Origin: an uncultured Ruminococcus sp.
GTDB taxonomy: Bacteria; Bacillota; Clostridia; Oscillospirales; Acutalibacteraceae
Assembly: GCA_964601235.1 (NCBI GenBank)
Contig: CAZRMP010000001.1
Coordinates: 1-63,605 of the forward strand
Direction: 5' to 3'
Length of the DNA: 63,605 nucleotides
Shown: positions 34,456-55,873 of the stretch, one piece after another
Numbering within the stretch: position 1 is the first letter of the stretch
Layout of the letters: every line of letters begins with the position of its first letter
Translations under genes and position numbers: made by a program
The notes under the pieces: generated by a model
What the model was told of the DNA's origin: nothing
Database searches by the model: none
What the model saw: the letters and a program-made list of their open reading frames with translations, nothing else

Positions 34456-34462
<7 letters not shown>

Positions 34463-35279: not shown

Positions 35280-35308
35280 TTGAAAGCTTGTTAGAAAAAA
35301 TATATAAT
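35280..35308 (+). promoter_or_regulatory. Sigma-A type promoter of the 20-kb GH16/ABC/surface-protein operon
   Basis: TTGAAA, 17 nt, TATAAT. Duplicate of the 30029-30057 promoter, including the downstream ATTGCACGATA box (35320-35330). Confidence 0.65.
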
Positions 35309-35387
35309 TAGTGTGCGAGATTGCACGATACTTATTGTGTAAAATAACAAACTAAATTTTCAAAAAAATATTAGAAAGGTGTTTGGT

Positions 35388-36689
35388 ATGAAATTTTTTA
35401 AGAACGAAGACATAAGCAAAAAAGGGCTTGCCGTAAGACTTGCGTGCCTTGTTTTAGCAATCCTTATGCTTCTTGCCTCCTGCGGTGAGGATACCGCAAC
35501 CGCTTCTAAAAAGAAGAAGAAGAAGGTAGTTGTAGTTAAAAAACCGGATTCTTCTAACACTGAATCTTCAGGCGACGATGACGATGATAATTTCGTTTAT
35601 GACGAGGACGACGAGGATGAGGAAGAAGAGGAAGAGGAAGAGGACAAGGACGAGGAAGAAGACGAGGGTGAAGACCTTAAAAAGGAACCTGACGTCGACC
35701 ATTCCGACCGCAGCTCTCATGTTCCCTCTCAATACAGCAATCTTGTTTTTGCAGAGGAATTTGAAGGCACTGCATTGAACCGCGATATTTGGACGATAGA
35801 AACAGCAGAAACAAGAACCGATACATATTGTGCAAACATCCCTGAATTGTTAGGCGTATATGACGGTGAGTTACACCTGACTACCCGCCGTTGGTTCGAC
35901 CCTTATGATGAGGAAATCAAGTATGCAACTCCTCCCGGCCTGCATACAACCAACGGTATGTGTTGGCGTTACGGCTATCTTGAGCTTTGCGCAAAGATAC
36001 CCCTTAACAGTGCCGTATGGTCTGCCTTCTGGATGTGTACGAGAGCGGAACATAAAGAAGATATCTACGATTATATGATAGAAATTGATATGATCGAGAC
36101 CTTCGGTAGCTATAACACCATAGTTCCGAACCTTCATAAGTGGTACTCACCCACAGGTAAGCAGAAGAACTTTGATAAGTGGAAAGATGTATATAACCTC
36201 AACACTATAGACGACTGCTCTTACCTCAAACACACTCAGAACGATTTCAGGTCGCCTTACAAGGTTCCGCATCCCGAAAACTTCAGCAACCAATACCACA
36301 CCTATGCCTTTGAGTGGACAGATACATATATGGCATGGTATTTTGACGGCGTTGAATATGACCGTTATGATTTCGCAACAAGATATGACTCTTTCTATTT
36401 TGATAAGGCTAAAAAGAGTGAAAACGGCACCGATATGTCGAACTTTGTTGCATCAAAACAGATGATGTGGTTTATTATCGGTAACGGCGCTATTTCTCCC
36501 CAGTCAACGGGAGATATCGGTACGGGCTTTGCTCCTGCTGATGCGGACTATCCTGCAGAAATGGCTGTGGATTGGATTAGAATTTACCACGATCCCAACC
36601 AAAAGGATAATCTTATTCAGGTCGGCAGTGAGCAGGTTACCAACAAGAGAATAATTTTACCTGACGGAACCGGTAAATCTGAATTTTAA
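35388..36689 (+). CDS. GH16 lipoprotein with a highly charged low-complexity linker
   Basis: ATG 35388 (RBS GAAAGGTG). Lipobox LLASC. K6-V4-KK followed by a D/E-rich tract. GH16 motifs WRYGYLELCAK, WSAFWM, EIDMIE. Confidence 0.85.
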   Translation: MKFFKNEDISKKGLAVRLACLVLAILMLLASCGEDTATASKKKKKKVVVVKKPDSSNTESSGDDDDDNFVYDEDDEDEEEEEEEEDKDEEEDEGEDLKKEPDVDHSDRSSHVPSQYSNLVFAEEFEGTALNRDIWTIETAETRTDTYCANIPELLGVYDGELHLTTRRWFDPYDEEIKYATPPGLHTTNGMCWRYGYLELCAKIPLNSAVWSAFWMCTRAEHKEDIYDYMIEIDMIETFGSYNTIVPNLHKWYSPTGKQKNFDKWKDVYNLNTIDDCSYLKHTQNDFRSPYKVPHPENFSNQYHTYAFEWTDTYMAWYFDGVEYDRYDFATRYDSFYFDKAKKSENGTDMSNFVASKQMMWFIIGNGAISPQSTGDIGTGFAPADADYPAEMAVDWIRIYHDPNQKDNLIQVGSEQVTNKRIILPDGTGKSEF

Positions 36690-36707: not shown

Positions 36708-39506
36708 ATGAAGATTAAACGAAATCTACAACTCATACTGTCGGTACTGGCGGCTGTTTGTATGACGGCTCAGGTGGGCGCCATCGCTGCTCCTGTCGCT
36801 TATTCCGAATACAAAACAGGCAACGCAGAGATATCCACGGTCAGCGATGGAGTAAGAATTAAAGGTTCTGATTTTTCTGCCTGCACCGATAGCGCGCTTA
36901 GGGCCGAAGGTGACGGTTCAATAATTCTTGGCGCCGATGAAGCGGTTGATTATAATTTCAGCGTTCCTTCCGACTCCATATATAATATTTACCTTTCTTA
37001 TGCCGCTATTGAAGATAACAAGTCGAATCTTAATATCGGAATTAAGCTTGACGGAGAATATCCCTTTGAAGAGGCGGGCAGTCTCTCTTTCCCGACTGCT
37101 TGGAACAATGAAACCAATGATTTCGCGGAGGACGATAAGGGAAATCAGCTTACTCCTAAGCAGGTTATGGTTGACGGCTTCTTTACATATCCCGCATATG
37201 ATGATACCGGCGTTGAAATAAAACCATATGAGTTTTTCATTTCCGCCGGAGCTCACACTGTTTCTCTCACGGCGATAGGCGACGGTGTTAAGCTTAACAC
37301 AGTAATGATTGCCCCGGTGAGAAGAGAGACTTCATATGAGGACTACATAAAGAATTATGACACCAAAGCTGCCAACGGCGCTGAGACGGTGGTTTTACAG
37401 GCAGAAAAATCTGTAAACAAGACCTCTTTCGCTCTTATTCCGAAATCGGATACTCTCAACAACGATGTTAAGCCCGCCGACCCCAAGAGAATTATGCTTA
37501 ACTATATGGGAGGCACCTCTTGGCAAACCCCCGGCGAGCAGATTTCCTGGAGCTTTAATGCCGAAAAAGACGGACTTTACAAGTTTGTTTTCCACTATAA
37601 ACAGAGCGACAACATCAACCGTCCTTCTTACAGGCATTTGATGGTTGACGGTAATACACCCTTCTCTGAAGCCCGCGAGCTTAAATTTGATTATACCACA
37701 GGCTGGAAAACCTATGAGTTGGGCGACGGTGAGGAGCCTTATTATGTGTGGCTTGCCAAGGGTGAGCACACCCTCACATTGGCGGCAACCCTCGGTTCAA
37801 ATACCGCCGATTATTACAACAGATTAAGCGAGATATGTAATAATCTTAACTCGATATATCTTAACATCATTAAGATTACCGGAACATCGCCTGACCTTAA
37901 CCGCGATTATGAGCTCTTTACACAGATTCCCGACTTAGAGGAAGCTTTGACTCAAAACCGCGACCTGCTTGAAAAGCTTAATAACGACATAACCGAAGAC
38001 AGCGGCGGCGATACAAACGAACTTTCTGCAGCGCTTGACAATATGCTTCTTGTTATTGATAAGATGCTTAAGTCGCCCTACTCCGCTCATCAGTATGTTA
38101 CAAACTTCTATTCCAACTTCAGCTCTGCAAGTACCTGGCTGCAGGATATGAAGAAGATGCCCTTGGCTCTTGACTATGTGGCGGTAGTACCCTCCGATTC
38201 GGATTATGAAGGTGACTCCTCCTTCTTTGGGGGACTTAAGTTCAGATTCCTTCGTCTTTTGGCTTCCTTCTCTTCGGAATATGATTCCGGATACGAGAAA
38301 GACGATGAAAACACAATCACGATTTGGACAGGTTTGGGACGCGATCAGGCCAACGCAATCGATACCTTAATCAAGCAGGACTTCACACCGAAAACAGGTG
38401 TAAAGGTTAATTTGAAAATCGTTCAGGCTACTCTTATCAACGGTCTTTTGGCGGATGACGTGCCGGATGTTATGCTTAATATGCCCCGTACACAGCCGGT
38501 TAACTACGGCGTAAGAAACGCCCTATACGATTTGAGGCAATTTGACGATTACGACGAGGTTATGAAGCGTTTCCAGGATGGTGCAGATATTCCTTATACC
38601 TATAAGGGAAAGACATACGCAATCCCCACCTCTCAGACCTTCAATGTTATGTTCTACAGAACAGATATACTTGAAAAGCTCAATATTTCCGTTCCTCAGA
38701 CATGGTCCGAGTTTATGGACGCTTCGGTTACAATCCAGCGAAACAATATGGAAGTCTTCATTCCGTACGCATCCGCTTTAGCGGGTAATGCGGGTATAGG
38801 CAGTACAGGTCTTTACCCCACACTTATGCTGCAGAAGGGTCTCTCCTTCTACAACGATGAGGGAACGGCTACTGCTATTAATACTCCCGCATCAATAAGC
38901 GTTTTTGACAACTGGATTAAAATGTATACCAATTATAAGATACAGAAATCCGCTGATTTCTACAACCGTTTCAGAATGGGTATTATGCCCCTTGGCGTTG
39001 CAGGGTACGCAACATATTTTAACTTTGTTCAGATGGCACCTGAAATTCAGGGTCAATACTCAATGGCTCTTGTTCCCGCTGATGATGAAACGGGCAGCAG
39101 AGCGGTGGCAGTAGACGGCGGCGCTTGCGCCATCGTAAAGAAAACCAATAATCCCGAGGCTGCTTGGGAGTTCCTTAAATGGTATACCTCTACCGATGTT
39201 GTTATCGAATATTCAAGGCGTGTTGAGTCTATTCAGGGCTTGGTCGGACGAATCCAGACCTCTAATGTTGAGGCTCTTAACAAAATGGATTGGAACGATG
39301 AGCAGTTAGCGGTAATCAACGAACAGTGGAAGCTTGCTAAGGAAATTCCCGAGGTTCCCGGAAGCTATTATTTATTACGCGCGGTTGATCAGGCTTATTG
39401 GTCGGTTATCAACGGAAAACAGAATTCTAAGGACGCTATGGCGTACTGGTCTGCGTCGGCAGATGCGGAAATAGAGCGCAAGTATCTTGAATTCGCAAAT
39501 AATTGA
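36708..39506 (+). CDS. 932-aa extracellular solute-binding protein fused to two N-terminal CBM6/35-like modules
   Basis: RBS AAGGAGG and a signal peptide. Two beta-sandwich-like modules (VDYNFSVPSDSIYNIYLSYA...AGAHTVSL and ISWSFNAEKDGLYKFVFHYK...GEHTLTL). The C-terminal ~430 aa match a family-1 sugar SBP (ITIWTGLG...GVKVNL...YAIP...FYRTD). Confidence 0.75.
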   Translation: MKIKRNLQLILSVLAAVCMTAQVGAIAAPVAYSEYKTGNAEISTVSDGVRIKGSDFSACTDSALRAEGDGSIILGADEAVDYNFSVPSDSIYNIYLSYAAIEDNKSNLNIGIKLDGEYPFEEAGSLSFPTAWNNETNDFAEDDKGNQLTPKQVMVDGFFTYPAYDDTGVEIKPYEFFISAGAHTVSLTAIGDGVKLNTVMIAPVRRETSYEDYIKNYDTKAANGAETVVLQAEKSVNKTSFALIPKSDTLNNDVKPADPKRIMLNYMGGTSWQTPGEQISWSFNAEKDGLYKFVFHYKQSDNINRPSYRHLMVDGNTPFSEARELKFDYTTGWKTYELGDGEEPYYVWLAKGEHTLTLAATLGSNTADYYNRLSEICNNLNSIYLNIIKITGTSPDLNRDYELFTQIPDLEEALTQNRDLLEKLNNDITEDSGGDTNELSAALDNMLLVIDKMLKSPYSAHQYVTNFYSNFSSASTWLQDMKKMPLALDYVAVVPSDSDYEGDSSFFGGLKFRFLRLLASFSSEYDSGYEKDDENTITIWTGLGRDQANAIDTLIKQDFTPKTGVKVNLKIVQATLINGLLADDVPDVMLNMPRTQPVNYGVRNALYDLRQFDDYDEVMKRFQDGADIPYTYKGKTYAIPTSQTFNVMFYRTDILEKLNISVPQTWSEFMDASVTIQRNNMEVFIPYASALAGNAGIGSTGLYPTLMLQKGLSFYNDEGTATAINTPASISVFDNWIKMYTNYKIQKSADFYNRFRMGIMPLGVAGYATYFNFVQMAPEIQGQYSMALVPADDETGSRAVAVDGGACAIVKKTNNPEAAWEFLKWYTSTDVVIEYSRRVESIQGLVGRIQTSNVEALNKMDWNDEQLAVINEQWKLAKEIPEVPGSYYLLRAVDQAYWSVINGKQNSKDAMAYWSASADAEIERKYLEFANN

Positions 39507-39519
39507 GGAGAAATCGGTA

Positions 39520-40434
39520 ATGAGAGAAAAATCTTTAAAAAAGAAAAGCCGAAAATGGTCTTTTGCTGAACAATGGCCGATGATTTTAATGGTTATACCG
39601 TTTATGGTTGTCTTTGCAACGATGGTAATCATTCCGATAATAGCTTCAATTGTTCTTAGCTTCACCAACTTCGATGCAATCCAGCTTCCGAAGTTTGTAG
39701 GTTTTGACAACTATATGCGTATGTTCGTTTCCGACGATGTATTTCCGATTGTGTTTAAAAACACACTCGTAATTGCGATTGTCGTAGGACCTATAGGCTT
39801 TTTAATGTCATTTGTTTTGGCGTGGTTCGTAAATGAGTTCTCTTCAGGGCTCAGAACAGTTTTATCCTTCATGTTCTATGCGCCGTCACTCGTAGGTAAC
39901 GCTTACTTCGTTTGGCAGGTACTTTTCAGCGGCGACGCTTACGGATATATCAACAACCTACTCCTGTCCATAGGTATTATTACCGAGCCTATCCAATGGC
40001 TGAAAACGTCTGAATACATACTTGTAATTGTAATTATCGTTCAGGTTTGGCAGAGTATGGGTGTTTCCTTCCTCTCGAATATATCAGGTCTGCAAAATAT
40101 AAGCCGAGATATTTACGAGGCGGGCGCTATAGACGGTATAAAGAACCGTTGGCAGGAGCTGAGATACATAACCCTGCCCTCAATGTCGAGTATGTTGCTG
40201 TTCTCGGCTGTTATGCAGATATCCGGCGCCTTCTCAGTAAGCGCTGTTGCACAGGCACTGGCAGGCTATCCGTCGGTTGAGTACGCTGTTGATACGATAG
40301 TATCTTATATGACGGATGTCGGCGGTACAAGATTTGAAATGGGCTATGCTTCGGCAATTTCGGTAGTTCTGCTGTTAATGATGGTCATTTTCAGGACTAT
40401 TGTCGGAAAATTGCTGAAACTTGTTACTAAGTAG
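39520..40434 (+). CDS. Sugar ABC transporter permease (LplB/MalF-like)
   Basis: Start at ATG 39520 (RBS GAGGAG). Six TM helices. EAA loop IYEAGAIDGIKNRWQELRYITLP. Confidence 0.85.
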   Translation: MREKSLKKKSRKWSFAEQWPMILMVIPFMVVFATMVIIPIIASIVLSFTNFDAIQLPKFVGFDNYMRMFVSDDVFPIVFKNTLVIAIVVGPIGFLMSFVLAWFVNEFSSGLRTVLSFMFYAPSLVGNAYFVWQVLFSGDAYGYINNLLLSIGIITEPIQWLKTSEYILVIVIIVQVWQSMGVSFLSNISGLQNISRDIYEAGAIDGIKNRWQELRYITLPSMSSMLLFSAVMQISGAFSVSAVAQALAGYPSVEYAVDTIVSYMTDVGGTRFEMGYASAISVVLLLMMVIFRTIVGKLLKLVTK

Positions 40435-40446
40435 GAGTGTGTGAAA

Positions 40447-41382
40447 ATGGAAAATGTTAAAATTGCTCAGACTTCTACTCCTGTTGCAGGCAAGAAGAAA
40501 AAATTTCACTTCCGCAAGCCCAGTAAAAAGCAGTTCAGCAAAAGATTTACAAGGTCAAGAGCAGGTAATGTATTTTATTTCCTATTCTTAACATTAGCAG
40601 GACTTTTCTGCCTTTTGCCGCTCATATATTCAGTTGTCACATCCTTTAAGCCTCTTGACGAAATAATGATTTTCCCACCGAGATTTTTCGTTAAAAGACC
40701 TACTATCGGTAACTACATTGCGTTACCTGAGTTGCTTTCGGGCTTAGAGGTCTCGATTGACAGATATATTTTCAACAGTATCTTTACAGGCATTATTGCA
40801 ACCTTCCTCTTTGTCGCGCTTTCTTCTATGGCGGCGTTCTCCCTCTCTAAGGGTAAGTACGGTGGAAGAAATACAATGTTTAATGTCGTTCAGTACGCAT
40901 TGCTTTTCAACGGCTACACATTGGCTTTGCCACAGTACATTATATTAACTAAGCTGCATGTAGTTGATACATACTGGGCTTTCATCCTACCTCATATGGC
41001 TTCAACCTTGGGTATATTCCTTATGAAGCAGTATATTGACGGATATGTTCCCGAAACATATATTGAGGCAGGAAAAATCGACGGTGCTTCATATTTCAGA
41101 ATTTTCTGGAAGATTGTTATTCCGATTATCCGCCCCGCGATGCTTACATTAATACTGTTTGGCTTCCGCGAGGTATGGGCGTATGCACCGGGAACAACGG
41201 TATACACCGAAACAATCAAAACTTTGCCTATGATAACGACCCAGGTTACAAGTGCCGGTGTTGCCCGTACGGGTAGCTCGATGGCATTAACGGTAATAAT
41301 GATGATTCCGCCTATAGTTATTTATATGGCTACTCAAAGCGGTGTTACGGAAACAATGAGCAGTGCAGGTATTAAGGAGTAG
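40447..41382 (+). CDS. Sugar ABC transporter permease (LplC/MalG-like)
   Basis: ATG 40447 sits 9 nt after AGGAG. EAA loop IEAGKIDGASYFRIFWKIVIPI. Confidence 0.85.
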   Translation: MENVKIAQTSTPVAGKKKKFHFRKPSKKQFSKRFTRSRAGNVFYFLFLTLAGLFCLLPLIYSVVTSFKPLDEIMIFPPRFFVKRPTIGNYIALPELLSGLEVSIDRYIFNSIFTGIIATFLFVALSSMAAFSLSKGKYGGRNTMFNVVQYALLFNGYTLALPQYIILTKLHVVDTYWAFILPHMASTLGIFLMKQYIDGYVPETYIEAGKIDGASYFRIFWKIVIPIIRPAMLTLILFGFREVWAYAPGTTVYTETIKTLPMITTQVTSAGVARTGSSMALTVIMMIPPIVIYMATQSGVTETMSSAGIKE

Positions 41383-41390
41383 TGTTTATT

Positions 41391-43514
41391 ATGTACAAAA
41401 CAAAATTTAAATGCATAAAACGCTTTCTGGTTTGTTCTCTTGTCGTTCTTTTGATTGCATCAATGGCGGCTGTATCTGTCTCTGCGGCGCAGGTTCCGAT
41501 TGACGCTTATAACTATTGGACAGATACTAAGGGTGACGGCAGTAAAAAATCTGTTTACTCAAGGCTTGCGTTCGAAGCGGAAAGCGTTATAGACGCTCAG
41601 TCCTTGAATGTACCTTACTATAACGAGATTTCTGATTTTTGTGTTGATAACGGCAACATTTATATTCTTGACGGAAATGATTCAAGAATTACGATTGTTG
41701 ACGCCGGTTACAATGTAATCAAAGATGTTTATGATGTCAATTATAACGGCGAAGCCTTGAATTATAAGGGAGCCAGCGGCATATTTGCCAAAAACGGCAA
41801 GATATATATATGTGATACGGAAAATGAACGGGTTTTGGTTATGGATGAGAGCTGTAATGTTATCACTGTAATCAAACGGCCTACTTCATCTATTATTCCG
41901 GATGACTTTCATTACCGTCCGATAAAATTAACAGCAGATTCACAAGGTTATCTGTATATCTTAATAGAAGGTTCTTTCTACGGAGCGATGCTGTTTACAC
42001 CTTCCTATGAGTTTGTTGAATTTTTCGGTTCTAACGATGTTGTCAACAGTCTTTCAACTGTTTTCTCTAATATTATCTCGCGTGTTTTCCCGAATAATGA
42101 CAAAAAGGCGGCAAGCGTAAAGACCCTGCCCTTCAGTATTGTTGATTTGTGTATGATAGAGGATGACTTCGTATACACAGTTACGGGCAGAACAGATTAT
42201 GTGTCTCAAAAAGGGCAGATCCGTAAGCTGTTTATCGGAACCGGAAGCAATATCTTAGAATACACAGGGAATTTTGTCGATCAAGGTATAAACAACTCGC
42301 GACTCGGCGGCAAAAACATGCTTCAGGACTTATGCAGTATCGATGTTGACGAAAGCGGATTTATATACGCGCTCGATTCAAAGTACGGAAGAATTTTCGT
42401 TTACGATACTACAGGAAGGCTGATTACAACCTTCGGCGGCGGTTTGGACTACGGCGAGCAGGCAGGAACATTTAAAGCGGCAAAGACACTGGCCCTTAAC
42501 GGCGACAGGCTGCTTGTTCTTGACACCTTTAAGAACACTATCACCGTTTTCAAGCACAATGAGTATTTCAACCTTATCAAGCAGGCACAGCTGCTTACCT
42601 TGGAAGGTGACTATACTGCCTCTGAAGGACTTTGGAGACAGGTATTGGCTCAGGACAGTAACTGCCAGATAGCCTATGCAGGCTTGGCCCGCGCGGAATA
42701 TGCGGCAGGCAATTATGAACTTGCAGAAGAATATGCCCGCAAGGGTTATGACAGGGATACATACTCCTTAGCCTTCAAAGTATTAAGAACACAGTTTATT
42801 ACCAAATATTTCTGGATAGTAATGATAGTCGCTATCCTTGTGATAGTTGCACTTTTTGTATTGCTTAAGATTAAGAACCGCAAGGGCATAAAGCTTGTAA
42901 AGAATCCAAAGGTTCGACTGGCTATGTCGGTATTGATGCATCCGATTGATACCTTTAATACAATTAAGGAAAAGCGGATGACCTCTGTTACAATAAGCTT
43001 TGTTCTGCTGTTAATATTCTATGTGACAGCGGTTCTCAAGGTGCTCTGCGGCGGTTTTGCTTTTACCTATTATGATCCGTCAAGCTTCAACTCGATTTGG
43101 GTATTGGTTAAGAGCGCAGGCGCAGTTATCCTGTGGATTGCAGCAAACTGGCTTGTATGCTCGCTTATGAGCGGTAACGGCAGAATTACCGAGATAATCA
43201 CGGTTACCTGCTACAGCTTGATTCCGTTGATAATCAACCAAATCATTCAGATCATCTTCACCAATGTCCTCTTGGTTGACGAGGCGGCATTCCTCTCGAT
43301 TATAAGTATGGTTGCGACTATCCTGTTCGTATTTATGCTTGCAACGGGAACTATGATTATTCACGAATACGGGTTCGGCAAATTTGTGGGAACATCGGTT
43401 ATAAGCGTAATCGGAATGGCGATTATAGTATTCCTGATATTCATGGTAGTTATGTTGGTACAGCAGCTCTTCGGATTTATTTCCACTATAATACTGGAAA
43501 TAGCTACGTTTTGA
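41391..43514 (+). CDS. Signal peptide + NHL-repeat beta-propeller + TPR-like segment + C-terminal Yip1-type polytopic membrane domain
   Basis: ATG 41391 (RBS AAGGAG). Repeated Y(I/L).D..N.RI.V.D blades (IYILDGNDSRITIVD, IYICDTENERVLVMD, IYALDSKYGRIFVYD, LLVLDTFKNTITVF). About 6 hydrophobic helices in the last 250 aa. Confidence 0.7.
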   Translation: MYKTKFKCIKRFLVCSLVVLLIASMAAVSVSAAQVPIDAYNYWTDTKGDGSKKSVYSRLAFEAESVIDAQSLNVPYYNEISDFCVDNGNIYILDGNDSRITIVDAGYNVIKDVYDVNYNGEALNYKGASGIFAKNGKIYICDTENERVLVMDESCNVITVIKRPTSSIIPDDFHYRPIKLTADSQGYLYILIEGSFYGAMLFTPSYEFVEFFGSNDVVNSLSTVFSNIISRVFPNNDKKAASVKTLPFSIVDLCMIEDDFVYTVTGRTDYVSQKGQIRKLFIGTGSNILEYTGNFVDQGINNSRLGGKNMLQDLCSIDVDESGFIYALDSKYGRIFVYDTTGRLITTFGGGLDYGEQAGTFKAAKTLALNGDRLLVLDTFKNTITVFKHNEYFNLIKQAQLLTLEGDYTASEGLWRQVLAQDSNCQIAYAGLARAEYAAGNYELAEEYARKGYDRDTYSLAFKVLRTQFITKYFWIVMIVAILVIVALFVLLKIKNRKGIKLVKNPKVRLAMSVLMHPIDTFNTIKEKRMTSVTISFVLLLIFYVTAVLKVLCGGFAFTYYDPSSFNSIWVLVKSAGAVILWIAANWLVCSLMSGNGRITEIITVTCYSLIPLIINQIIQIIFTNVLLVDEAAFLSIISMVATILFVFMLATGTMIIHEYGFGKFVGTSVISVIGMAIIVFLIFMVVMLVQQLFGFISTIILEIATF

Positions 43515-43529
43515 TGAAAGGGTGTAAAA

Positions 43530-45767
43530 ATGATAGTTTCAAGAAAAAATATAATCAGAATATTTACACTCGTTGTTGCGGCGGTAATTGTATTTGCAGG
43601 ATGCGGCGCAGACAATCAAACCGCACAGAAATTAGGAAAATATGAATCCCCCGGAGCATCCGAAGATATTAACGGTATTGTAGCCGAAAACGATAAATAT
43701 CAGTTGCTTTGGGACGATGCTGAAAAGAAAGTGTCTGTTTACGATAAGAGTGACGGTTCTGTTTTTTCTACAACAAGGCACGAGGAAAGCACCGAGCTTG
43801 ATGCATTTGGCTTGCCGAAGCCGCAGGATTCACGAATGATATCCGATATCATTGTTGAATATACCGACCCATCGGAATCTAATACTAATAATGTTCTTTA
43901 TTCAAGCGTTGAAGCTGTTGATGGGGGAACCGTAACATGCGAAGCAATAGATAACGGTATAAGGGTTACATTCTATTTTGAAACCGCCCAAATATCTGTT
44001 CCTGTTGACTATGTGCTTACAGAGGAAGGTTTTTCGGTTTCTGTCGATCCGACCAAGATTAAAGAGGCTGAGTATAAAACTGTTTCTATCGGAATAGCTC
44101 CCTTTGCATGTTCCTGCAAAAACGATGCGGAGGATGCGTATCTGTTTGTTCCGTCAGGTTCGGGTGCACTTATCTATCCGAATAATATTTCAACTAACGG
44201 CGGCGTATATTCACAGGTTGTTTACGGTTCAGACCCGTTAGAGGCGGTTTGGGAAAAGGATTTCAACGAGCAAAATATAAAGCTCCCTGTTTACGGAGTT
44301 AAGGACGGAAATAACGCATTATTCGCTATTATCAGCTCAGGCGATGATTCGGTATCAATCGAATCAATCTACGGCTCTTCTACACTCGGAGCTTCTACAG
44401 TTTACTCTACCTTCAATATTCGCGGTAAGGTAGAAATCCGTAAAAAGCTGTACGGTTCCAGAACATTCCAAATTGTCCAGTACAGTAATGATGTAATAGA
44501 GACCCCCTGCAAGGTGGATTTCTACATTCTAAAGGGCAACGAAGCAAATTACTCGGGCATGGCAAAGGTTTTCAGGGAGAAAGCGCTGAAAGAAATCGAA
44601 GCGACCACGAATTCCGAAATGAACCTTGTAATTTACGGCGGTGCAATTGTTGATAAATCATTCCTTGGAGTTCCCTACCAGTCGGTGTTCGCTACTACAA
44701 CTGTTGAAGAAGCGTACAAAATGGTAAAGGAATTAAAGGAGGAAACGGGAGCATCCATCTCGGTTATGCTTAAAGGCTTCGGCAAATCCGGTGTAGATAT
44801 CGGTGAAATCGGCGGAGGTTATAAGCTGAGCGGAGCTATCGGCAGTAAGTCCGACCTTAATGATTTAGGTGCATATTGCAAAGAAAATAATATTGGAATT
44901 TATTTTGATTTCGATGTAATTCGTCAATCGGCAAGCGGACTCTTCTCGTCCGGCAACGCGGCAAAGGCTATCGACCAACAAACAGAATATCAGTACTTGT
45001 TTGATAAAGCGGTTAACTCAAGAATTACGGACACGCAATTCTCACTGATATCGAGAAGCTCTTTGACAGGTGCTGCCGATAAGATTATTTCTAAAACGGC
45101 TAAATGGGGTATTGACGGAGTTGCGTTAGATACACTTTCAAATATTTCTTATTCGGATTACGGCGCTCCAAACTATCATGCAAGAAGCCAAATGAGCTCG
45201 GATGTAAAGGGAATTTTCGCTGCTCTTAAGGATTCCGGCAAAAAAGTTGCTTCTGTTTCGGCTAACTATTATGCCGCAAACAGTTCCGATATTATATTTG
45301 AAACGCCGTCAACATCAAATAAGAGCGATGCATTCTCGGTGGATGTTCCGTTTTATCAGATGGTTTTCAAGGGTAAAGTTAATATCGGCTGCGAATCGGT
45401 CAACCTTACCTTTGATGAAAGAGATGCGGTTCTAAAGTCCGTAGAGAGCGGCGCAGGCGTTACATATGCGCTTTATAATAATTATGATACCTCTTTAACA
45501 GATTCGTATAATCCCATTTTTGCGACAGGAACATACGATGCGATTAAGCAGGGTATGGTTGATGAGGTTAAAGCTCTCAAGGGATATTATGACTCTATTG
45601 AAGATACTTCTATAAGGGAACATACCCTTATAAGTAACGATGTCCGCAAAACGGTGTTTGAGAACGGAACCGTTGCCTATGTTAACTACTCCGATAATGA
45701 TTATACAGGTGATTTCGGAACGGTTGCGGCGCACGGTTATCTAACCGTTCCGGCTGCCGCCGAATAG
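43530..45767 (+). CDS. 745-aa lipoprotein of unknown function (possibly DUF5696-like, with a TIM-barrel GH-like C-terminal half)
   Basis: RBS AAAGGGTG. Lipobox VFAGC. No catalytic motif assignable. GIDGVALDTL and alternating beta/alpha-like segments suggest a glycosidase-like barrel. The DUF assignment is from memory only. Confidence 0.55.
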   Translation: MIVSRKNIIRIFTLVVAAVIVFAGCGADNQTAQKLGKYESPGASEDINGIVAENDKYQLLWDDAEKKVSVYDKSDGSVFSTTRHEESTELDAFGLPKPQDSRMISDIIVEYTDPSESNTNNVLYSSVEAVDGGTVTCEAIDNGIRVTFYFETAQISVPVDYVLTEEGFSVSVDPTKIKEAEYKTVSIGIAPFACSCKNDAEDAYLFVPSGSGALIYPNNISTNGGVYSQVVYGSDPLEAVWEKDFNEQNIKLPVYGVKDGNNALFAIISSGDDSVSIESIYGSSTLGASTVYSTFNIRGKVEIRKKLYGSRTFQIVQYSNDVIETPCKVDFYILKGNEANYSGMAKVFREKALKEIEATTNSEMNLVIYGGAIVDKSFLGVPYQSVFATTTVEEAYKMVKELKEETGASISVMLKGFGKSGVDIGEIGGGYKLSGAIGSKSDLNDLGAYCKENNIGIYFDFDVIRQSASGLFSSGNAAKAIDQQTEYQYLFDKAVNSRITDTQFSLISRSSLTGAADKIISKTAKWGIDGVALDTLSNISYSDYGAPNYHARSQMSSDVKGIFAALKDSGKKVASVSANYYAANSSDIIFETPSTSNKSDAFSVDVPFYQMVFKGKVNIGCESVNLTFDERDAVLKSVESGAGVTYALYNNYDTSLTDSYNPIFATGTYDAIKQGMVDEVKALKGYYDSIEDTSIREHTLISNDVRKTVFENGTVAYVNYSDNDYTGDFGTVAAHGYLTVPAAAE

Positions 45768-45801
45768 TTCAGACTGTAAATAATTGATTGTGGTGACGCA
45801 G

Positions 45802-46698
45802 ATGAAGAAAAAACATATTAAGGGAATTGAGGCAAGAAAGAGCCGCTACGGTTTTATGTTTATCCTGCCGTGGGTAATAGGATTTATCTTGTTCTTCTTT
45901 ATTCCTATTATACAGTCTTTTATATATTCAATAAGTACTATACAAGTAACTAATGACGGTATTAAAACCGATTTTATCGGTTTGGAAAATTATATATTCA
46001 TGATAAAAAAAGACGCAAAATACCTCACGATGTTGCAAAGCGCTATTACCGGATTTTTGTATAAGCTTCCGCTTATATTGGTAGTCAGTATAGTTCTTTC
46101 CCTTGTCTTGAATCAGAAGTTCAAGGGCAGGGTAATCTTCAGGGCTATGTTCTTCTTACCCGTTATAATAGCAACGGGCGTGGTTATGGAATTGGTATTT
46201 ATGACTACTGCTGAGTCGAGCACAGCAATGGGTGTTTCGGATTCGATAACATCAAATATGTTTTCTGTTGAAAGCATTATGGAAAGTCTCGACCTACCCA
46301 CGCAAATAGCTACATATATCCAAACCGCGGTAAGCAGTATTTTCGATTTGATATGGGACTGCGGAATACAGATAATTTTGTTTATTGCAGGACTTCAGTC
46401 CATACCGGCTTCTATATATGAAGCGAGCAAGGTTGAAGGTGCTACGAAATGGGAAGAGTTTTGGTTTATCACCTTCCCGCAGTTGTCAAAAATCACACTG
46501 CTTGTAGCCATCTTTACCATGCTTGAAATATTCAGCGATAACCGTAACGATTTAATCAGTAATGCATACACCAGAATGTCCGGCGGTGTATACGACAAAT
46601 CGTCGGCAATGCTGTGGATGTATTTTGCGGTAGTGGCTGTGATTATGGGTATATTAGTTGCGGCATATAATAGATTCTTACTTAAGAAATGGGATTAA
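45802..46698 (+). CDS. Sugar ABC transporter permease (second system, MalF-like)
   Basis: ATG 45802. EAA loop IYEASKVEGATKWEEFWFITFP. Confidence 0.85.
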   Translation: MKKKHIKGIEARKSRYGFMFILPWVIGFILFFFIPIIQSFIYSISTIQVTNDGIKTDFIGLENYIFMIKKDAKYLTMLQSAITGFLYKLPLILVVSIVLSLVLNQKFKGRVIFRAMFFLPVIIATGVVMELVFMTTAESSTAMGVSDSITSNMFSVESIMESLDLPTQIATYIQTAVSSIFDLIWDCGIQIILFIAGLQSIPASIYEASKVEGATKWEEFWFITFPQLSKITLLVAIFTMLEIFSDNRNDLISNAYTRMSGGVYDKSSAMLWMYFAVVAVIMGILVAAYNRFLLKKWD

Positions 46699-46715: not shown

Positions 46716-47696
46716 ATGACTATGAAAAAAGAGTCAGGAAAAAGTAATTTACTAAATGCAAAAACCAAAAAGAAAATTACAAATATAGTAAGTTATGTTG
46801 TAAGATTGATGTTTTTGATTTCAATTTCATACATTGTTATTTACCCCTTGTTATATATGGTTTTAACATCGGTAACTCAAGAATCAGCGTTCATCAGTTC
46901 GCGTAGAATATGGCTTCCCGATCAGGTTACGGGTAGTTTCTATTCTAAGATTATTGAAATCATAGATTACTTTAAGGCGTTGCTTTCGACCGTAAAGTAT
47001 GAAGTTGTTGCGGCGCTTATTGAGGTATGTAGCTGTGCCTTCGCGGCATACGGTTTTTCAAGATTTAAATTCAAATCTAAAAAATTCTTCACCGCAATGC
47101 TGTTCCTCACTATTTTGATACCTACCGCGATGATAATAATTCCCCTTGCAGTCAATTATGCTCATCTTGATTTCTTTGGTATCTTAGGCTTGTTTTATAA
47201 GCTCACAGGCATTGATCTCAGAGTGAACATACTTAATACGCCGTGGTCGTTCTGGCTGCCGTCGTTGTTTGGTATAGGTCTTAGATCGGGAATAATAATA
47301 TACATATATATGCAGTTCTTTAAAGGCTTACCCGGTGAGTTTGAAGAGGCGGCATATGTAGACGGGGCAGGACCGCTCAGAACCTTTTTGCAGATAATTA
47401 TTCCCTCATCAACGGTTGTAATTTTGACAGTAACCGTATTTTCGCTTATTTGGCATTGGAACGATTATCAGATGGCGACAATGTTTATGAGTGCGGATAT
47501 GCCGCTGTCGGTATCCTTGCTTAACCTGCCTGATAATTTAGGCATTTACGGTTATTATATATCAGATTCTGACCCAAGGGCAATTTCACTGATGATGGCT
47601 GCGTGTGTATTATTTATTTTACCTGTGTTGGTATTCTATATGATAGTGCAACATTGGTTTATAGAAAGTGTTGATCGCGTCGGAATTACGGGCTGA
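46716..47696 (+). CDS. Sugar ABC transporter permease (second system, MalG-like)
   Basis: RBS GGGGGTGAG. EAA loop EEAAYVDGAGPLRTFLQIIIP. Confidence 0.85.
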   Translation: MTMKKESGKSNLLNAKTKKKITNIVSYVVRLMFLISISYIVIYPLLYMVLTSVTQESAFISSRRIWLPDQVTGSFYSKIIEIIDYFKALLSTVKYEVVAALIEVCSCAFAAYGFSRFKFKSKKFFTAMLFLTILIPTAMIIIPLAVNYAHLDFFGILGLFYKLTGIDLRVNILNTPWSFWLPSLFGIGLRSGIIIYIYMQFFKGLPGEFEEAAYVDGAGPLRTFLQIIIPSSTVVILTVTVFSLIWHWNDYQMATMFMSADMPLSVSLLNLPDNLGIYGYYISDSDPRAISLMMAACVLFILPVLVFYMIVQHWFIESVDRVGITG

Positions 47697-47757: not shown

Positions 47758-49227
47758 ATGAAAACAACAGTAAAACGCTTGTTGGCATTGTTGTGCGTTG
47801 TCGCCGTCGGCGCTGCCACAATGGCTTCATGCAAAAAGGACACGGTCGATCAGACCAGCTCGGATGAATACGAGATAGAGTATATTTACGAGACCGAATC
47901 GGGCGATGAAACCGCGTCGGGTGACGAGGTTGCGGCAAGCAACGGTGATGCTTCAAGCAAAAATAATTCAAGCAAAAATAATTCAAGCAAAAACAACTCA
48001 AGCAGCGGCAGCTCAAGCACCCCCGGCGTAATTAAGCAGTCCGGCTCATATCATAAGTGGGACTACAGCCAGTTCAAGGGCAAAACGGTTACCTTTGCTA
48101 TGTGGACCGACTTTGTTAAGCCTTATGCTGATGACGCTATAGCGCTGTTCGAGAAAGAAACCGGAATGAAGTTTAAATATATGGACGTTCCTCAGAGGGA
48201 TTATGTTAAAACCGTTACAGGAAAAATCGCGGCAGGCACAGGCCCTGATGTAGTTATAGAAAACAGTTCATTCCCTGCTACCATGGCTATCTTACAGCCT
48301 GTAAACGATTATGTTGATCTTTCGGATTCAATCTGGGATAAGAATTACATTGAATCCTACACTATAAACGGCAAGACATATGCGCTTTCTTGTGAGGGCA
48401 GCCTTTTCGGCGGTTCCGGCGGCAGCAATCTTCTGTGGTACAATAAGACCTTACTTAAGAAGGCGGGAGTTCCGGAGCCGGCTCAGCTTTATGCGGCAGG
48501 CAACTGGACCTGGGATACACTCGGCGAGCTTATGAAGCAATATGAGGCAAGCCCCACTAAGGTTAAAGGTACAGGCGCTATGCGCGGCGACGATACATAT
48601 TTCCTTTCATCTATAGGCGCAAGCTTCTATAATTATGATCCTAACACTGCTACATTTACAAGCAATATTAATGACCCGCTTCTCTCAAAGGCAATAACCA
48701 AAATGGCTGAGTGGGCAAAGGCAGGTTATTATATAAATTCCACCTTATTAGAAGGCGGAGCGGCAATGCAGCTTACCTTCACAATCACTAAAAAGGATGT
48801 TAAGGCTTCAAAGGTTTCCCTCAATGATTTAGGATTCACTTATGCTCCCGATTTTGATAAGGACAACAAGATTGTAACAAAGACCAGCGGAAAAGGCTGG
48901 GGTATATGCAAGGGCGCTAAGAATCCCGAGGCTGCAGGTATATTCATTAAGTACTATTCCGATCCCGGCAACTATGACACCAGCGAATTCTTTGTAAGCG
49001 ATGAATTTACAGACCTTTTCTTCAAGGTTAAAACAATGCAAGCAAAGAAATTCAGAGATGTTGGATACGGTGTTTTAGAGGCAAGCGGTGAACCGGCTGA
49101 TAAGTACTACAATGTTGGTAAGCAGGCTGATCCGAACCAAGTAGCTCCCTATCTCAATGCAATGAAGAACAACGTTGCAACAGAAGCTGCAGAAGCTACT
49201 AAGGTGCTCCAGAACGCAATTAAATAA
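47758..49227 (+). CDS. Sugar ABC transporter substrate-binding lipoprotein
   Basis: RBS GGAGGA. Lipobox TMASC. SSKNN x3 linker. Family-1 SBP body. Confidence 0.8.
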   Translation: MKTTVKRLLALLCVVAVGAATMASCKKDTVDQTSSDEYEIEYIYETESGDETASGDEVAASNGDASSKNNSSKNNSSKNNSSSGSSSTPGVIKQSGSYHKWDYSQFKGKTVTFAMWTDFVKPYADDAIALFEKETGMKFKYMDVPQRDYVKTVTGKIAAGTGPDVVIENSSFPATMAILQPVNDYVDLSDSIWDKNYIESYTINGKTYALSCEGSLFGGSGGSNLLWYNKTLLKKAGVPEPAQLYAAGNWTWDTLGELMKQYEASPTKVKGTGAMRGDDTYFLSSIGASFYNYDPNTATFTSNINDPLLSKAITKMAEWAKAGYYINSTLLEGGAAMQLTFTITKKDVKASKVSLNDLGFTYAPDFDKDNKIVTKTSGKGWGICKGAKNPEAAGIFIKYYSDPGNYDTSEFFVSDEFTDLFFKVKTMQAKKFRDVGYGVLEASGEPADKYYNVGKQADPNQVAPYLNAMKNNVATEAAEATKVLQNAIK

Positions 49228-49281: not shown

Positions 49282-52200
49282 GTGAAAATAAAACAACTTT
49301 CAAAACAATTTTTAGTTGTTGTTTTGGCATTAGCTGTTTTGGCATCGACCTTAATGCTTCAAAGCTTTTCAATCTTCGCAGACGGTGCAATAACCAACTC
49401 TTGGAAAGGCAAAGAAGCGGCAGATTTTGCCGGAGGAAGCGGTACAGACAGCGATCCTTATCAGATTGCCGACGCTTCACAGCTGGCATTGCTTGGTAAA
49501 TACATAGTATCGGACACGCTCGATGAAGACGGCACAAAGTATAAAACAAAATCTTATATACTTACAGCCGATATTTACCTTAACGATGTATCCCCCCTTG
49601 GGGATACACCGTGGTACGAGCGTACCGATACTGACTTAAAGCAGTGGAATTACGGCGCAGGAGCTGTAAACACCGCAAATTACTTTGCCGGTAAATTAGA
49701 CGGTAACGGCTATACAATAAAGGGCATTTACATTGATACCGAATATCAGTGCACCGGCCTCTTCATTGGAACTATGGGGCAGGTCGTTATAAAGAACCTC
49801 GGTATTGAGTCGTCCTATATCAAATCGACCTTTACAGCCACTAATTCTTCTAACCAGGTTGGTGCGATTGTCGGCCGTATAAACAACAATTCAGGAAATA
49901 CAGTCGATATTTCCAACTCCTATGTAGCAGATTCTGTTATTATTACAGGTGCGAATGTCGGCGGTTTCTTCGGTGAGCACGGAGCTCCCTCCAAGGTGAC
50001 AATAACAAACTGTTATTCATCTGCCCAGATTAGCGCCACAGGTAATAAGGGTGCATTTGTGGCAGGAATAGGCGGGAAAAATATTTTAACCGTAAAGAGG
50101 TCCTTCAGTACCCAAACAAATATTAATTTTGTGGGCTACAATTTTACAAGTGAGATTTATGAAGATTGTTATACTTTGGCAACCGCAACGGTAGGTATCA
50201 CAAAGCTTGCTAATCTTGATAAAATGCAGGGTGAAAAAGCGAAGGAAAATATGCCCGCCCTTAACTACACCCATAAGTGGACGGTTCGCGATGGTGATGT
50301 TCCTTATCTTACAGTTTTCGATCATCCTGTAGATGCGGCGGCGCCTACTCTTTCGGGAGATATAAACACAGCAGGTCTGTCAAAAACAACCGCGGCTGTA
50401 ATGTGGCCTGCGGCCAGCGAAGATGTTACAGCGCCTGAGGATATGGTTTACACTCTTTATATGTCTGAAGCACCGATTACAGATGTAAATGCGGCAGGTG
50501 TGGTAAATTGCGGCGAATATATCGGTGAGACCGATGCAACCGTAGATGAACTTACAATGGGCAATAATTATTATTTTGCTGTTGTTGCTACCGATGAAAC
50601 GGGCAAAAGCTCCAACCTGTTTGCTATGGCTCAGCCCTATTGTCATAACTATTCAACATTTGACGATTGGGACGGCACTGTTGCCGAAGGCTTCACCGTA
50701 GGTAACGGTTCTGCGGCAAAGCCTTATATGATTCTTAACGCCGAGCAGTTGGCTTACCTTGTTGATTTGTGCAGAAGCGGTAACGGCGAGGCAACAAGCG
50801 GCAAATATTATACATTAAATGTAGATATTAATCTCAATAATGTAAGCGATGCTGATTGGCAGAAGAACAGCCCCAAGGAGTGGACTGTAGGTACAGCCTA
50901 TGAGTGTGACAAGGCTGCGTTTTACGGTATATTCAACGGTAACGGTCATGTTATCAAGGGCTTGTATATTAATGAGTCTGCGGATGTCTATAACGGTCTT
51001 TTTGCCGCAGTGACTAATAATGCAGTTATTAAAAATCTCGGAATTGAGAACTCATATATCAAAGCAGGCGAGGAAGGCTATGCCGGTGTATTAGCGGGCG
51101 CACGCACTGCTTCTACTAAGGAAGAAGGCGTTGCTGTTGAATATTCATATATCGGCAGCGATGTTACCCTTGACGGTCCGTATCAAGGCGGCTTCTTCGG
51201 AACAGTTTCGAATGTCACTACTATTAAAAATTCTTATTCAAAGGTTAACTTAACGGTTGACGAAGACGGCAAAAATAATCTTGGTACACTTATAGGCGAC
51301 CACTCGATTCCAAACATTACAATTACTGTTGACGGATGCTATAATGCCGTCAACGCTCCTATGGTTGCCTTGACAAACGAGTATGCCAAGGTTACCTATA
51401 AAAATTCCTATACTGTCGGTGCGGACGCGGAGGGTCTCGCTAACAGAACCCTTGAACAAATGACAGGTACGAACGCGATGAACTATATGCGCGGCTTTGA
51501 TTTCGACATCGTATGGGATATTGTGGAAAACGACACACCTGTTCTGGTTGTATTTGTTCCTCCGGTAGAAAATACTAACGATATATGGGACGGCACATTA
51601 GCAACAATTCCCGAGGGTGCTACCCACCCCTATGACAGCGGAACCGGCACAGCGGCCGATCCTTATCTCATTTCCACCCCCGAACAGTTCGCTTATATGC
51701 TCATTAAAGCCAACTGGGGTACTACCAATTCTGTATCCGGCGGAGCACATTATAAATTGTTAAATGATATTTATCTTAATGATGTGTCAGCAGGTGAGTG
51801 GTATAATTCTGCTAATATCAATGCGTGGAGAGGCCAGGCCGATAATGATGCCGAGTGCAGTGGCCGTATGTTCTATGGACATATTCACGGCAACGGTAAA
51901 ACGGTTTACGGTATGTATTATAGCGGCGATGCATATTTTTCCGGATTGATTTACCGTTTTGGTGCAGGTGCAAGTGTTGAGGATTTAAGAATCTCAAAGG
52001 CTTATGTTAATGCTACAAGCTGGAGCGGTTCTCACGGAGTATTAGTCGGACATTCCTGGGGCAATACAACAGTAAAGAATGTCGTTATCGATGATACCGT
52101 AAAGGCCAATGCAGCTAATGGCGGTGCAGCAGTAATAGGCGGAATACAGGGTGATATAACAGCCCCTGTTACTGTTGAGAACTGTTATATCGGCGCTAAT

Positions 52201-54879: not shown

Positions 54880-54882
54880 GCT

Positions 54883-55734
54883 ATGAATTTAGAAAACAGC
54901 GGTTACAAGCTTGTGTGGAGCGATGAGTTCGACGGCGGTAAGCTTGACCCCGCTAAATGGACGCTCAGGGCGGATATGGCCGGTAATCCCGGCCTCGCCC
55001 TCTGCGGCGAGGAAAATCCCGCGGTTATGCGTCTTGAGGACGGAAATCTTAAGCTAAGCGCAATAGAAAACCCGGACGGCGATGAACACAAATACTCAAC
55101 CTGCTATTCGGTTACCACATTTAACAAAATGAGGTTCAGGTACGGTTATCTCGAAATATCCGCAAGAGTTCCCTATATGCAGGGCGCGTGGCCGTCCTTT
55201 TGGCTTAAATCTCTTGCCGATGATATTTGCCCTACACCTCGGGCCGATTATATGGCGGAGATCGATGTATTTGAGGTTTTTTCAACTACCGATACCGCTG
55301 TCCCGAATCTTCATAAATGGTATGAGCGTATGGTTAAATTGCCTAACGGATATGAAGTCAATCATACGCAGGGCGGCAATTACCTTGATAAATCGCTCGA
55401 AAGGAAGCTGTATGTATTTAAGGATACAAGCAAGCTTTGCGATGAGTATCACACTTACGGCTTTGAATGGACTCCGGAGTATATGTCTATGTCGATTGAC
55501 GGTGAGGTATATTGCACCTACGATATTAACAGCAATTATGACGAATTTAGCGATATGAGCGGTTTCCATGACGCGCTGTATGTCCTGTTCAATAACCATA
55601 TTTTCACCGAGCATAACAATTCTTGGATTCCTCGCGCAAAGGTAGACGAGAACACGACTTTTCCGATTAATTATTGGATTGATTATATTCGTCTTTATCA
55701 GAAGGATGAATACGGCGATTTATATTTAGGCTAA
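54883..55734 (+). CDS. GH16 glycoside hydrolase without signal peptide
   Basis: The RBS lies in the end of the upstream gene. WSDEFDG, FRYGYLEISARVP, WPSFWL and the EIDVFE catalytic motif are present. Confidence 0.85.
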   Translation: MNLENSGYKLVWSDEFDGGKLDPAKWTLRADMAGNPGLALCGEENPAVMRLEDGNLKLSAIENPDGDEHKYSTCYSVTTFNKMRFRYGYLEISARVPYMQGAWPSFWLKSLADDICPTPRADYMAEIDVFEVFSTTDTAVPNLHKWYERMVKLPNGYEVNHTQGGNYLDKSLERKLYVFKDTSKLCDEYHTYGFEWTPEYMSMSIDGEVYCTYDINSNYDEFSDMSGFHDALYVLFNNHIFTEHNNSWIPRAKVDENTTFPINYWIDYIRLYQKDEYGDLYLG

Positions 55735-55750
55735 GCCAAAAGATAAAACA

Positions 55751-55843
55751 CAGCCGCGTTAAGGTGTTAATAACTTCCGAATTCCGCACCGTGCGACATT
55801 CGGGTCACAGTTAAAATACTGCCTTTAACGCGGTTGTTTTTTT
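55751..55843 (+). terminator. Long compound terminator (14-bp outer stem with two G-U pairs, inner hairpin, T7 run)
   Basis: CAGCCGCGTTAAGG pairs with CCTTTAACGCGGTTG. Inner stem CCGAAT/ATTCGG. Followed by TTTTTTT. Confidence 0.6.
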
Positions 55844-55873
55844 AAAAATTTAAACAGACTGTGAGGTCATATT

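Follow-up and report, generated by a model that had tools for sequence, protein, structure and literature searches.

An eight-gene cassette of Firmicutes with a Yip1-NHL protein and a DUF5696 lipoprotein between two sugar-importer permease pairs

The window analysed in this study is a 63,605-nt stretch of contig CAZRMP010000001.1 (assembly GCA_964601235.1) from an uncultured Ruminococcus sp., and our subject is a pair of adjacent genes within it: open reading frame (ORF) A, encoding a protein with Yip1 and NHL domains (Yip1-NHL), and ORF B, encoding a lipoprotein of the DUF5696 family. They are located between two pairs of ATP-binding cassette (ABC) permease genes, and together with these and with two genes for substrate-binding proteins (SBPs) they constitute one eight-gene unit, of which Yip1-NHL and DUF5696 are the invariant middle. 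This cassette recurs across hundreds of gut and soil Firmicutes. With moderate confidence, we suggest that Yip1-NHL acts as a scaffold and DUF5696 as a glycosidase-like surface partner, and that the two couple a pair of CUT1 importers in the core of a Gram-positive polysaccharide-utilisation locus (PUL). The members of the cassette in the window are as follows:

36708..39506, plus strand: long SBP, 932 aa, with a signal peptide and an SBP_bac_8 domain at about 550-836; always the first gene of the cassette
39487..40434, plus strand: permease A1 (permA1), UgpA/MalF-like, EAA loop IYEAGAIDG
40441..41382, plus strand: permease A2 (permA2), UgpE/MalG-like, EAA loop EAGKIDGAS
41391..43514, plus strand: Yip1-NHL protein (ORF A), 707 aa (Pfam Yip1 and NHL, AF2, Foldseek)
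43530..45767, plus strand: DUF5696 lipoprotein (ORF B), 745 aa (Pfam PF18952, AF2, Foldseek)
45784..46698, plus strand: permease B1 (permB1), UgpA/MalF-like, EAA loop EASKVEGA; its true start may be an ATG six codons further in
46716..47696, plus strand: permease B2 (permB2), UgpE/MalG-like, EAA loop EEAAYVDGAG
47758..49227, plus strand: small lipoprotein SBP, 489 aa, the most divergent member of the cassette

The conservation of the cassette was followed in two directions. In the forward scan, one genome per species was searched with the DUF5696 profile, which gave 264 relatives; the best 80 loci were kept and their synteny was determined by ORF calling and phmmer. The reverse test was a metagenome search with a Yip1-NHL profile. 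The order long SBP, permA1, permA2, Yip1-NHL, DUF5696, permB1, permB2 and, usually, small SBP was kept on one strand in 80/80 genome loci (each with enough flank), down to 33-40% identity, with the small SBP found downstream in 52 of these best 80 DUF5696 loci. In the reverse direction, DUF5696 was the next gene after Yip1-NHL in 68/68 metagenome loci with at least 1.5 kb of downstream sequence. The nearest named relatives are Acutalibacteraceae metagenome-assembled genomes, and at 21-29% identity the cassette extends to Butyrivibrio (Lachnospiraceae) and Paenibacillus (Paenibacillaceae). Two carriers are cultured, namely Butyrivibrio fibrisolvens D1, which has the cassette on plasmid pNP243, and Paenibacillus cellulosilyticus (KACC 14175), which also has it on a plasmid and in which Yip1-NHL is a fused protein. 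At least five genomes contain two or three paralogous cassettes. The mean identity to the window protein, taken over 64 loci, was 63% for permA1, 58% for permA2, 51% for both permB1 and permB2, 42% for Yip1-NHL, 41.5% for the long SBP, 36.5% for DUF5696 and 29.5% for the small SBP.

The cassette genes are closely spaced. In the window, ORF A begins (ATG at 41391) 8 nt past the stop of permA2 (41382) and about 11 nt past an AAGGAG box, and ORF B follows after a gap of 15 nt, exactly as had been noted in the original prediction, which was made from the sequence without database searches. From the long SBP through permB2 the gaps have medians of 10-15 nt, the DUF5696 stop overlaps the permB1 start in most related loci (4 nt; median -4 nt), and the only loose junction is the one before the small SBP. 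The pair had been described as inserted between the permease genes; as the eight genes form one unit of fixed order, it is not an insertion. It had also been suggested that Yip1 and DUF5696 pairs recur beside LplABC-like transporters. The recurrence was borne out by the 80 genome and 68 metagenome loci and by the Butyrivibrio and Paenibacillus cassettes, and a linkage of the pair to ABC transporter genes was present in all usable loci. The LplABC identity had to be rejected, as the permeases score only as generic UgpAE/MalFG-like proteins of the CUT1 type. A mobile-insertion origin of the pair was likewise rejected, by synteny and by an even base composition.

A second line of evidence is covariation. 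Pairwise distance matrices of seven proteins from 66 loci were compared by a partial Mantel procedure, in which regression on the other proteins' mean took out the shared component and a permutation test was applied to the residual correlations. The permease partners, used as positive controls, gave residual correlations of 0.43 (permA1-permA2) and 0.37 (permB1-permB2), whereas pairings of A with B components, used as negative controls, ranged from -0.16 to 0.08. The values for Yip1-NHL were 0.36 with permB1, 0.30 with DUF5696, 0.27 with both permA1 and the long SBP, and 0.26 with permB2 (p=0.001 for each); DUF5696 and permB2 also reached 0.26. Yip1-NHL thus covaries with DUF5696 and with both transporters to about the extent seen between true permease partners, which, the sequences being linked and related, is no more than suggestive. 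As it tracks both transporters, which do not track each other, Yip1-NHL behaves as a bridging partner would.

The domain structure of Yip1-NHL largely follows the one originally predicted, i.e. an NHL-type propeller of four or more blades, a TPR-like segment and a C-terminal Yip1 domain. Behind a signal peptide of the cleavable type (residues 1-33, ..SVSA/AQ), Pfam NHL (PF01436) matched with 39.3 bits (cut-off 20), and the AlphaFold2 (AF2) model (predicted confidence, pLDDT, 79) contains a six-bladed propeller at 39-389 and four helices, arranged in hairpins, at 391-452. TPR_16 scored 25.1 bits on this protein, under its cut-off of 32.7, and 'TPR-like' is the safe term for the modelled hairpins. 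Residues 455-498 form in the model a continuous 44-residue stalk/transmembrane (TM) helix leading from the TPR region through the membrane. It runs into a strongly basic linker (KIKNRKGIKLVKNPKVR; 493-532), which is placed in the cytoplasm because of this basic character and which lies ahead of the Yip1 helices. Pfam Yip1 (PF04893) matched residues 513-682 with 43.7 bits (cut-off 28.6; profile positions 2-171/173) and is also annotated on all listed homologues. Within the whole domain (513-706), hydropathy peaks at 535-553, 571-589, 611-629, 632-650 and 670-688 correspond to five TM segments, and the AF2 helices span 533-706. NCBIfam gave nothing specific beyond the Pfam assignments.

In Foldseek comparisons, the propeller was closest to the NHL domains of TRIM71, Thin and TRIM2 (E 6e-14, TM-scores 0.75-0.78), with bacterial surface propellers such as BtuG among the lower matches; a sequence search of the PDB also matched the Thin and TRIM2 NHL domains. 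The Paenibacillus orthologue aligns with the window protein end-to-end (27% identity, E 7e-59). In Butyrivibrio, two proteins take the place of Yip1-NHL, one with the NHL, TPR and TM parts and one with the Yip1 domain, encoded by overlapping genes; the five-TM Yip1 unit is therefore a separate module that must re-associate with the remainder.

The Yip1 family was originally regarded as one without an established bacterial function, a view that has to be amended. The Bacillus Yip1 protein YknW modulates the assembly of the YknYZ complex and of YknXYZ (PMC4887032), and in bacteriocin clusters Yip1 genes accompany HlyD/ABC sets (PMC10707071). Accessory subunits of ABC transporters, in each case exporters, were the only roles of bacterial Yip1 proteins that we found in the literature, where we also found no paper on the cassette, on DUF5696, on PF18952, or on Yip1 in connection with sugar uptake. 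The cassette protein is similar to those of the YknWXYZ and BawDEFG-type exporters in having a five-TM Pfam Yip1 domain encoded in one operon with ABC permease genes. On the other hand, YknW, which is likened to it here by Pfam family, has about 220 aa and no ectodomain and belongs to a MacB-type exporter with an HlyD/membrane fusion protein adaptor, whereas the Yip1 domain of the cassette is encoded between two type I sugar importers and is joined to an NHL-TPR ectodomain of 470 aa, or has it as a neighbour in Butyrivibrio.

ORF B matches DUF5696 (PF18952) over its full length (E 5.5e-120, profile positions 4-612/612), in agreement with the first assignment. It is not the orphan that it had been called, since 5,434 representatives of 50%-identity clusters match the DUF5696 profile, 3,379 of them at E <=1e-30. 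The protein carries the lipobox VFAGC, and a lipobox is present in 66/80 DUF5696 orthologues. The glycosidase-type barrel expected in its C-terminal half was recovered in the AF2 model (pLDDT 85, predicted TM-score 0.87), in which a (beta/alpha)8 barrel is set between two beta-sandwiches, one N-terminal and one C-terminal. The best full-length Foldseek match was Zobellia DagB (5opq/8rzk; E 9e-32, TM-scores 0.63/0.70), a 'GH129-like' 3,6-anhydro-D-galactosidase, where GH denotes a glycoside hydrolase family; it was followed by Bifidobacterium NagBb (5wzn, GH129; E 6e-25) and then by enzymes of families GH101, GH36 and GH31.

A 22-member DUF5696 profile found DagB (ZgGH129) by sequence as well (E 5e-4, three collinear fragments). 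Searching the PDB with the single ORF B sequence gave nothing meaningful, and an hhalign comparison of the DUF5696 profile with the GH36 protein of the window itself was not significant. A tblastn search of plasmids with a ZgGH129 fragment led to a GH129-like gene of Bacillus mycoides, and hhalign aligned only the C-terminal motif of its product with the DUF5696 profile (probability 1.3%). The B. mycoides plasmid proteins, of about 775 aa (L083:2356-4680 and L084:2323-4653), are annotated as hypothetical or 'glycoside hydrolase', and an Asp and a Glu in them align with D435 and E478 of NagBb. DUF5696 shares with GH129/GH101 enzymes (NagBb, DagB, EngBF, SpGH101) the three-domain architecture over the full length (TM-scores 0.6-0.7) and two motifs, vP(L/F)(Y/F)xxV(Y/F), which follows strand 6, and V..T.F..G..V.VN at the C-terminus. 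It differs from them in being only 10-14% identical, in being missed by the Pfam and CAZy-type models applied, in its apparently non-conserved catalytic Asp/Glu positions, and in being a lipoprotein locked into a transporter cassette. As the sequence similarity is only remote and fragmentary, DUF5696 falls outside GH129/GH101; judging from the model and the alignments, it is a remote relative within the retaining alpha-glycosidase superfamily and not GH129 proper.

We searched ORF B for the GH129/GH101 signature, an Asp nucleophile where strand 4 ends, followed some 31-43 residues later by a Glu as acid/base. The NagBb segments, taken from HMMER alignments, are ..HGIVLDCAYLD435VF.., ..GILTSSE478E.. 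and ..VPLYNLVYHD, and the ORF B segments compared with them are ..WGIDGVALD534TLSNISYSD543Y.., ..KKVASVSAN579YYAA.. and ..DVPFYQMVFKG, respectively. Of the ORF B residues, D534, at the end of strand 4, would best fit the nucleophile by position. D543 is Asp in 20/22 relatives and Asn in the other two, and is retained in Butyrivibrio and Paenibacillus; the D605 position is D/E in 20/22 relatives, and D235 of the N-domain is invariant, Paenibacillus included. The spacing from D534 or D543 to D605 is 71 or 62 residues, and that of the strand-4/strand-6 dyad of GH36 and GH31 enzymes is about 70. The conserved residues are concentrated directly behind barrel strands 1-7 and in loops of the N-domain (YLFVPSGSGA, VYGxD). 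As this is where the superfamily builds its pocket, a functional sugar pocket is likely in DUF5696, and hydrolytic activity is plausible.

The four permeases form two pairs of one UgpA/MalF-like and one UgpE/MalG-like protein, all with EAA loops, and both pairs look like membrane units of working CUT1-type importers. No ABC ATPase gene was found by phmmer, either in the window or among 162 related loci, Paenibacillus excepted, whose cassette has a UgpC-type ATPase gene just upstream. The ATPase is encoded elsewhere, as is common where an MsmK-type ATPase is shared. The cassette is in this respect similar to other CUT1 importers (MalEFGK2/UgpABCE, with a shared MsmK/MsmX-like ATPase), with which it also has in common the MalF/MalG-like pairs, the EAA loops and SBP_bac_8. 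Unlike in the usual CUT1 systems, two importers always occur together around two extra conserved proteins, and one of the SBPs is double-sized, bears modules resembling carbohydrate-binding modules (CBMs) and has no lipid anchor. This long SBP has about 500 additional N-terminal residues (36708-38200), comprising two similar CBM-like beta-sandwich repeats and helices, for which a sub-threshold Golvesin_C was the sole profile match. A lipobox-like motif occurs in 4/68 of its orthologues versus 50/52 of those of the small SBP. A long SBP free of a lipobox is unusual among Gram-positive SBPs. Each importer thus has an SBP of its own, the long one for permease pair A and the small one for pair B, and one possibility is that the NHL/TPR ectodomain tethers the long SBP at the cell surface.

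Based on these observations, the cassette might operate as follows. Endo-glycanases encoded nearby (in the window, laminarinase-like GH16 enzymes) would cleave the polymer extracellularly. Yip1-NHL would be a membrane scaffold, whose five-TM Yip1 module docks on the permeases in the manner of YknW on YknYZ, and whose rigid stalk, together with the TPR-like hairpins and the NHL propeller, keeps partners close above the membrane. The DUF5696 lipoprotein would be one such partner, and the unanchored long SBP possibly another. DUF5696 would act on the captured oligosaccharides by binding and probably trimming them, and both importers would take up the products. The scaffold model is supported by the distribution of lipid anchors, which the long SBP lacks and both DUF5696 and the small SBP possess, and by the combination of paralogous cassettes with varying flanking carbohydrate-active enzymes (CAZymes), as expected of a generic PUL core. 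The original prediction of accessory transporter subunits is in this sense supported by the tight spacing and by the covariation with both permease pairs.

Several points weigh against such a scaffold and its glycosidase-like partner. The case for physical contact rests on synteny and on the covariation of linked genes, which is only suggestive. Partial Mantel tests can be anti-conservative, and the residual correlation of Yip1-NHL with permA2 was -0.13. YknW is part of a MacB-type exporter, not of a type I importer. The superfamily of DUF5696 cleaves alpha-linkages, an activity that does not readily fit a beta-glucan (GH16/GH30/GH3) locus. Finally, position 534 is D/E in only 13/22 relatives, and at the second catalytic position of NagBb/DagB (573-579) there is no acid, N579 being invariant. 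With the canonical acids missing or variable, DUF5696 may therefore be non-catalytic or use D543, D605 and D235 instead.

The first of these alternatives, that DUF5696 is a catalytically dead protein with a glycosidase fold, which would bind glycans at the surface or form a lid in the way of SusD or the surface glycan-binding proteins, appears to us somewhat unlikely. Apart from the variable nucleophile position and the Asn residue invariant where GH129 has Glu, it would account for the absence of D460/D462 from the Butyrivibrio and Paenibacillus proteins. Moreover, DUF5696 is present whatever the neighbouring CAZyme families, which argues against one fixed bond specificity. The dead-enzyme alternative is countered by the retention of D235, D543 and D605, and by the spacing of D534/D543 and D605, which resembles that of the GH36/GH31 dyad. 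Catalytic residues also shift within the superfamily: DagB has nothing but the nucleophile in common with NagBb and draws on Asp202 in the partner subunit's N-domain (PMC5698469), so that such shifts are evidently tolerated.

It is improbable, in our estimation, that the locus is an ordinary co-regulated PUL in which DUF5696 is an exo-glycosidase, Yip1-NHL a separate glycan-binding or unrelated protein, and the gene order an inherited operon structure, with neither protein touching the transporters. Gram-positive PULs commonly combine CAZymes, binding proteins and ABC genes, DUF5696 does have a glycosidase fold, and propellers can bind ligands (BtuG being among the fold matches). However, substrate-specific enzymes usually vary, and from Oscillospirales to Paenibacillus it is the flanks (GH16, GH36, GH3, GH43, oxidoreductases) that vary here and never the pair, which is always found between the two permease pairs and with the spacing of translational coupling. 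The covariation of Yip1-NHL with both permease sets, which do not covary mutually, is not expected of such a locus either, and the mere anchoring of a binding domain needs no five-TM Yip1 module. Least probable, and by a wide measure unlikely, is a sensor or gate in which the propeller detects a glycan and regulates the transporter or signals to AraC/histidine-kinase regulators: the protein does combine an extracellular domain of ligand-binding type with a membrane module, 24/80 loci have AraC genes close to the cassette, and upstream of the Butyrivibrio cassette there is a histidine kinase gene, but the regulators are not conserved cassette members, signalling by any Yip1 protein is not known, and the sensor role suggested originally has no support because hydropathy and AF2 reveal no cytoplasmic signalling domain in Yip1-NHL, its sole cytoplasmic segment being the linker of about 35 residues.

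The scaffold model can be carried further, to one supercomplex in which the Yip1 module bridges the two ABC importers and the NHL/TPR platform carries both the GH129-like lipoprotein and the otherwise unanchored CBM-bearing SBP, although we regard this extended form as rather doubtful. If true, Gram-positive bacteria would have an equivalent of the SusCD utilisome of Bacteroidetes, and a Yip1 protein would for the first time be given a role in an importer; DUF5696 would be the founding member either of another glycoside hydrolase family or of a novel class of lids derived from glycosidases. As a concept, the cassette resembles SusCD and BtuG-BtuB in its duplicated transport core, its surface-located binding and enzyme lipoproteins, and the variable CAZymes around it. 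It differs in that the transporters are non-homologous (TonB-dependent barrels versus ABC importers), the envelope is Gram-positive, and the assembly is hypothetical here.

Firmicutes are major degraders of fibre in the gut and rumen, and we know of no hallmark of their glycan-uptake systems comparable to SusC/SusD. The cassette could mark Gram-positive PULs because of its invariant order, its thousands of protein clusters, its duplication and its changing CAZymes. The component families are known, as are Gram-positive PULs with ABC uptake; the eight-gene architecture and the roles of its two central proteins are undescribed. Our results offer testable roles for bacterial Yip1 proteins, so far tied to exporters only, and for the large DUF5696 family, and the two cultured carriers make experiments possible.

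The plus-strand genes are uninterrupted across 35379-57739, and no strong internal terminator was found. Further features of the locus are the following:

34332-34366: strong terminator, preceding the candidate promoter and the GH16 gene
35280..35308, plus strand: the site that best matches a sigma-70-like promoter (TTGAAA-17-TATAAT, 11/12), lying past the terminator; probable operon start
35379..36689, plus strand: GH16 (laminarinase-like), first gene of the operon (Pfam Glyco_hydro_16 5.9e-10; nearest solved structures are laminarinases)
49282..57739, plus strand: downstream genes in one locus with the cassette, encoding a 1865-aa Flg_new/fn3 surface protein, GH16 (start 54883), GH130 (start 55874) and an AraC regulator (start 56903)

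Upstream of the cassette there are genes for GH2, GH3 with CBM6, GH30, GDSL, GH36, GH130, GH78, a trehalase-family glycosidase (PF01204) and a dockerin protein. The region of about 12-58 kb comprises in total GH2, GH3 with CBM6, GH30, GH36, two GH130, GH78, the PF01204 glycosidase, four GH16 and two AraC genes, and with CAZymes, transporter and regulator co-localised it is, by gene content, a Gram-positive PUL. The window GH16 proteins are nearest to laminarinases, and any substrate assignment for the operon is tentative. The best match of the GH16 at 54883 was 6t2n, which we take to be a Bacteroides mucin O-glycanase GH16 protein. GH16-like genes flank the cassette in about 37/80 related loci, and GH36, GH3, GH43 or oxidoreductase genes are the other flanks. 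The Paenibacillus cassette (L082:14180-22043) is followed by four LLM-class flavin oxidoreductases, an NADPH-dependent oxidoreductase and two extra SBPs, with no glycoside hydrolases, and may serve a non-glycan or modified-sugar substrate.

Several loci have, after the cassette, a gene for a giant surface protein (1,300-2,000 aa) with Flg_new repeats, CBM4_9/fn3 modules and a TM anchor at its C-terminus, e.g. at 49282-54879 in the window, L080:16791-20627 and L017:15667-19716, and AraC genes, too, follow it in other loci. The giant proteins were counted in two clusters, 9 and 10 (5 and 4 loci), the others being merged into the GH16 cluster; they may capture glycans for the cassette system. A 785-aa protein (29974-32331) ends in a type I dockerin, its sole Pfam domain, and resembles the GH16/Flg_new cluster beside other cassettes. 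The dockerin suggests a cohesin-dockerin system in this organism. Two ORFs had no Pfam match at E <=1e-3, one of 549 aa between GH130 and GH78 (23532-25181) and one of 223 aa after AraC (57919-58590).

A 128-nt direct repeat (81%) occurs at 29930-30057, at the start of the dockerin-protein gene, and at 35181-35308, just 5' of the GH16 gene (35379). It is in the second of these copies that the best promoter-like site lies, and the repeat may be a promoter/operator common to two of the operons in this locus. A family of GC-rich hairpin repeats (core CACCTCCCTTTAGACAAGGGAGGC) is also present in the two intergenic gaps, each of about 1.1 kb (28847-29973 and 34290-35378), with copies at 28998, 29560, 29778, 34455 and 34972 and a 101-nt unit at 29691 and 34565 that is 96% identical. 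The family looks like an intergenic element of the repetitive extragenic palindrome (REP) or miniature inverted-repeat transposable element (MITE) kind. Amid these repeats lies a 101-aa ORF (29238-29543; ..LIVELDGSQHYEE..RIPNNEV..), which resembles a DUF559/Vsr-like endonuclease domain. The window starts with a 5'-truncated 5S rRNA (1-100) and a tRNA (344-427), and the GC content of its first 2 kb is low (35.5% versus about 44%).

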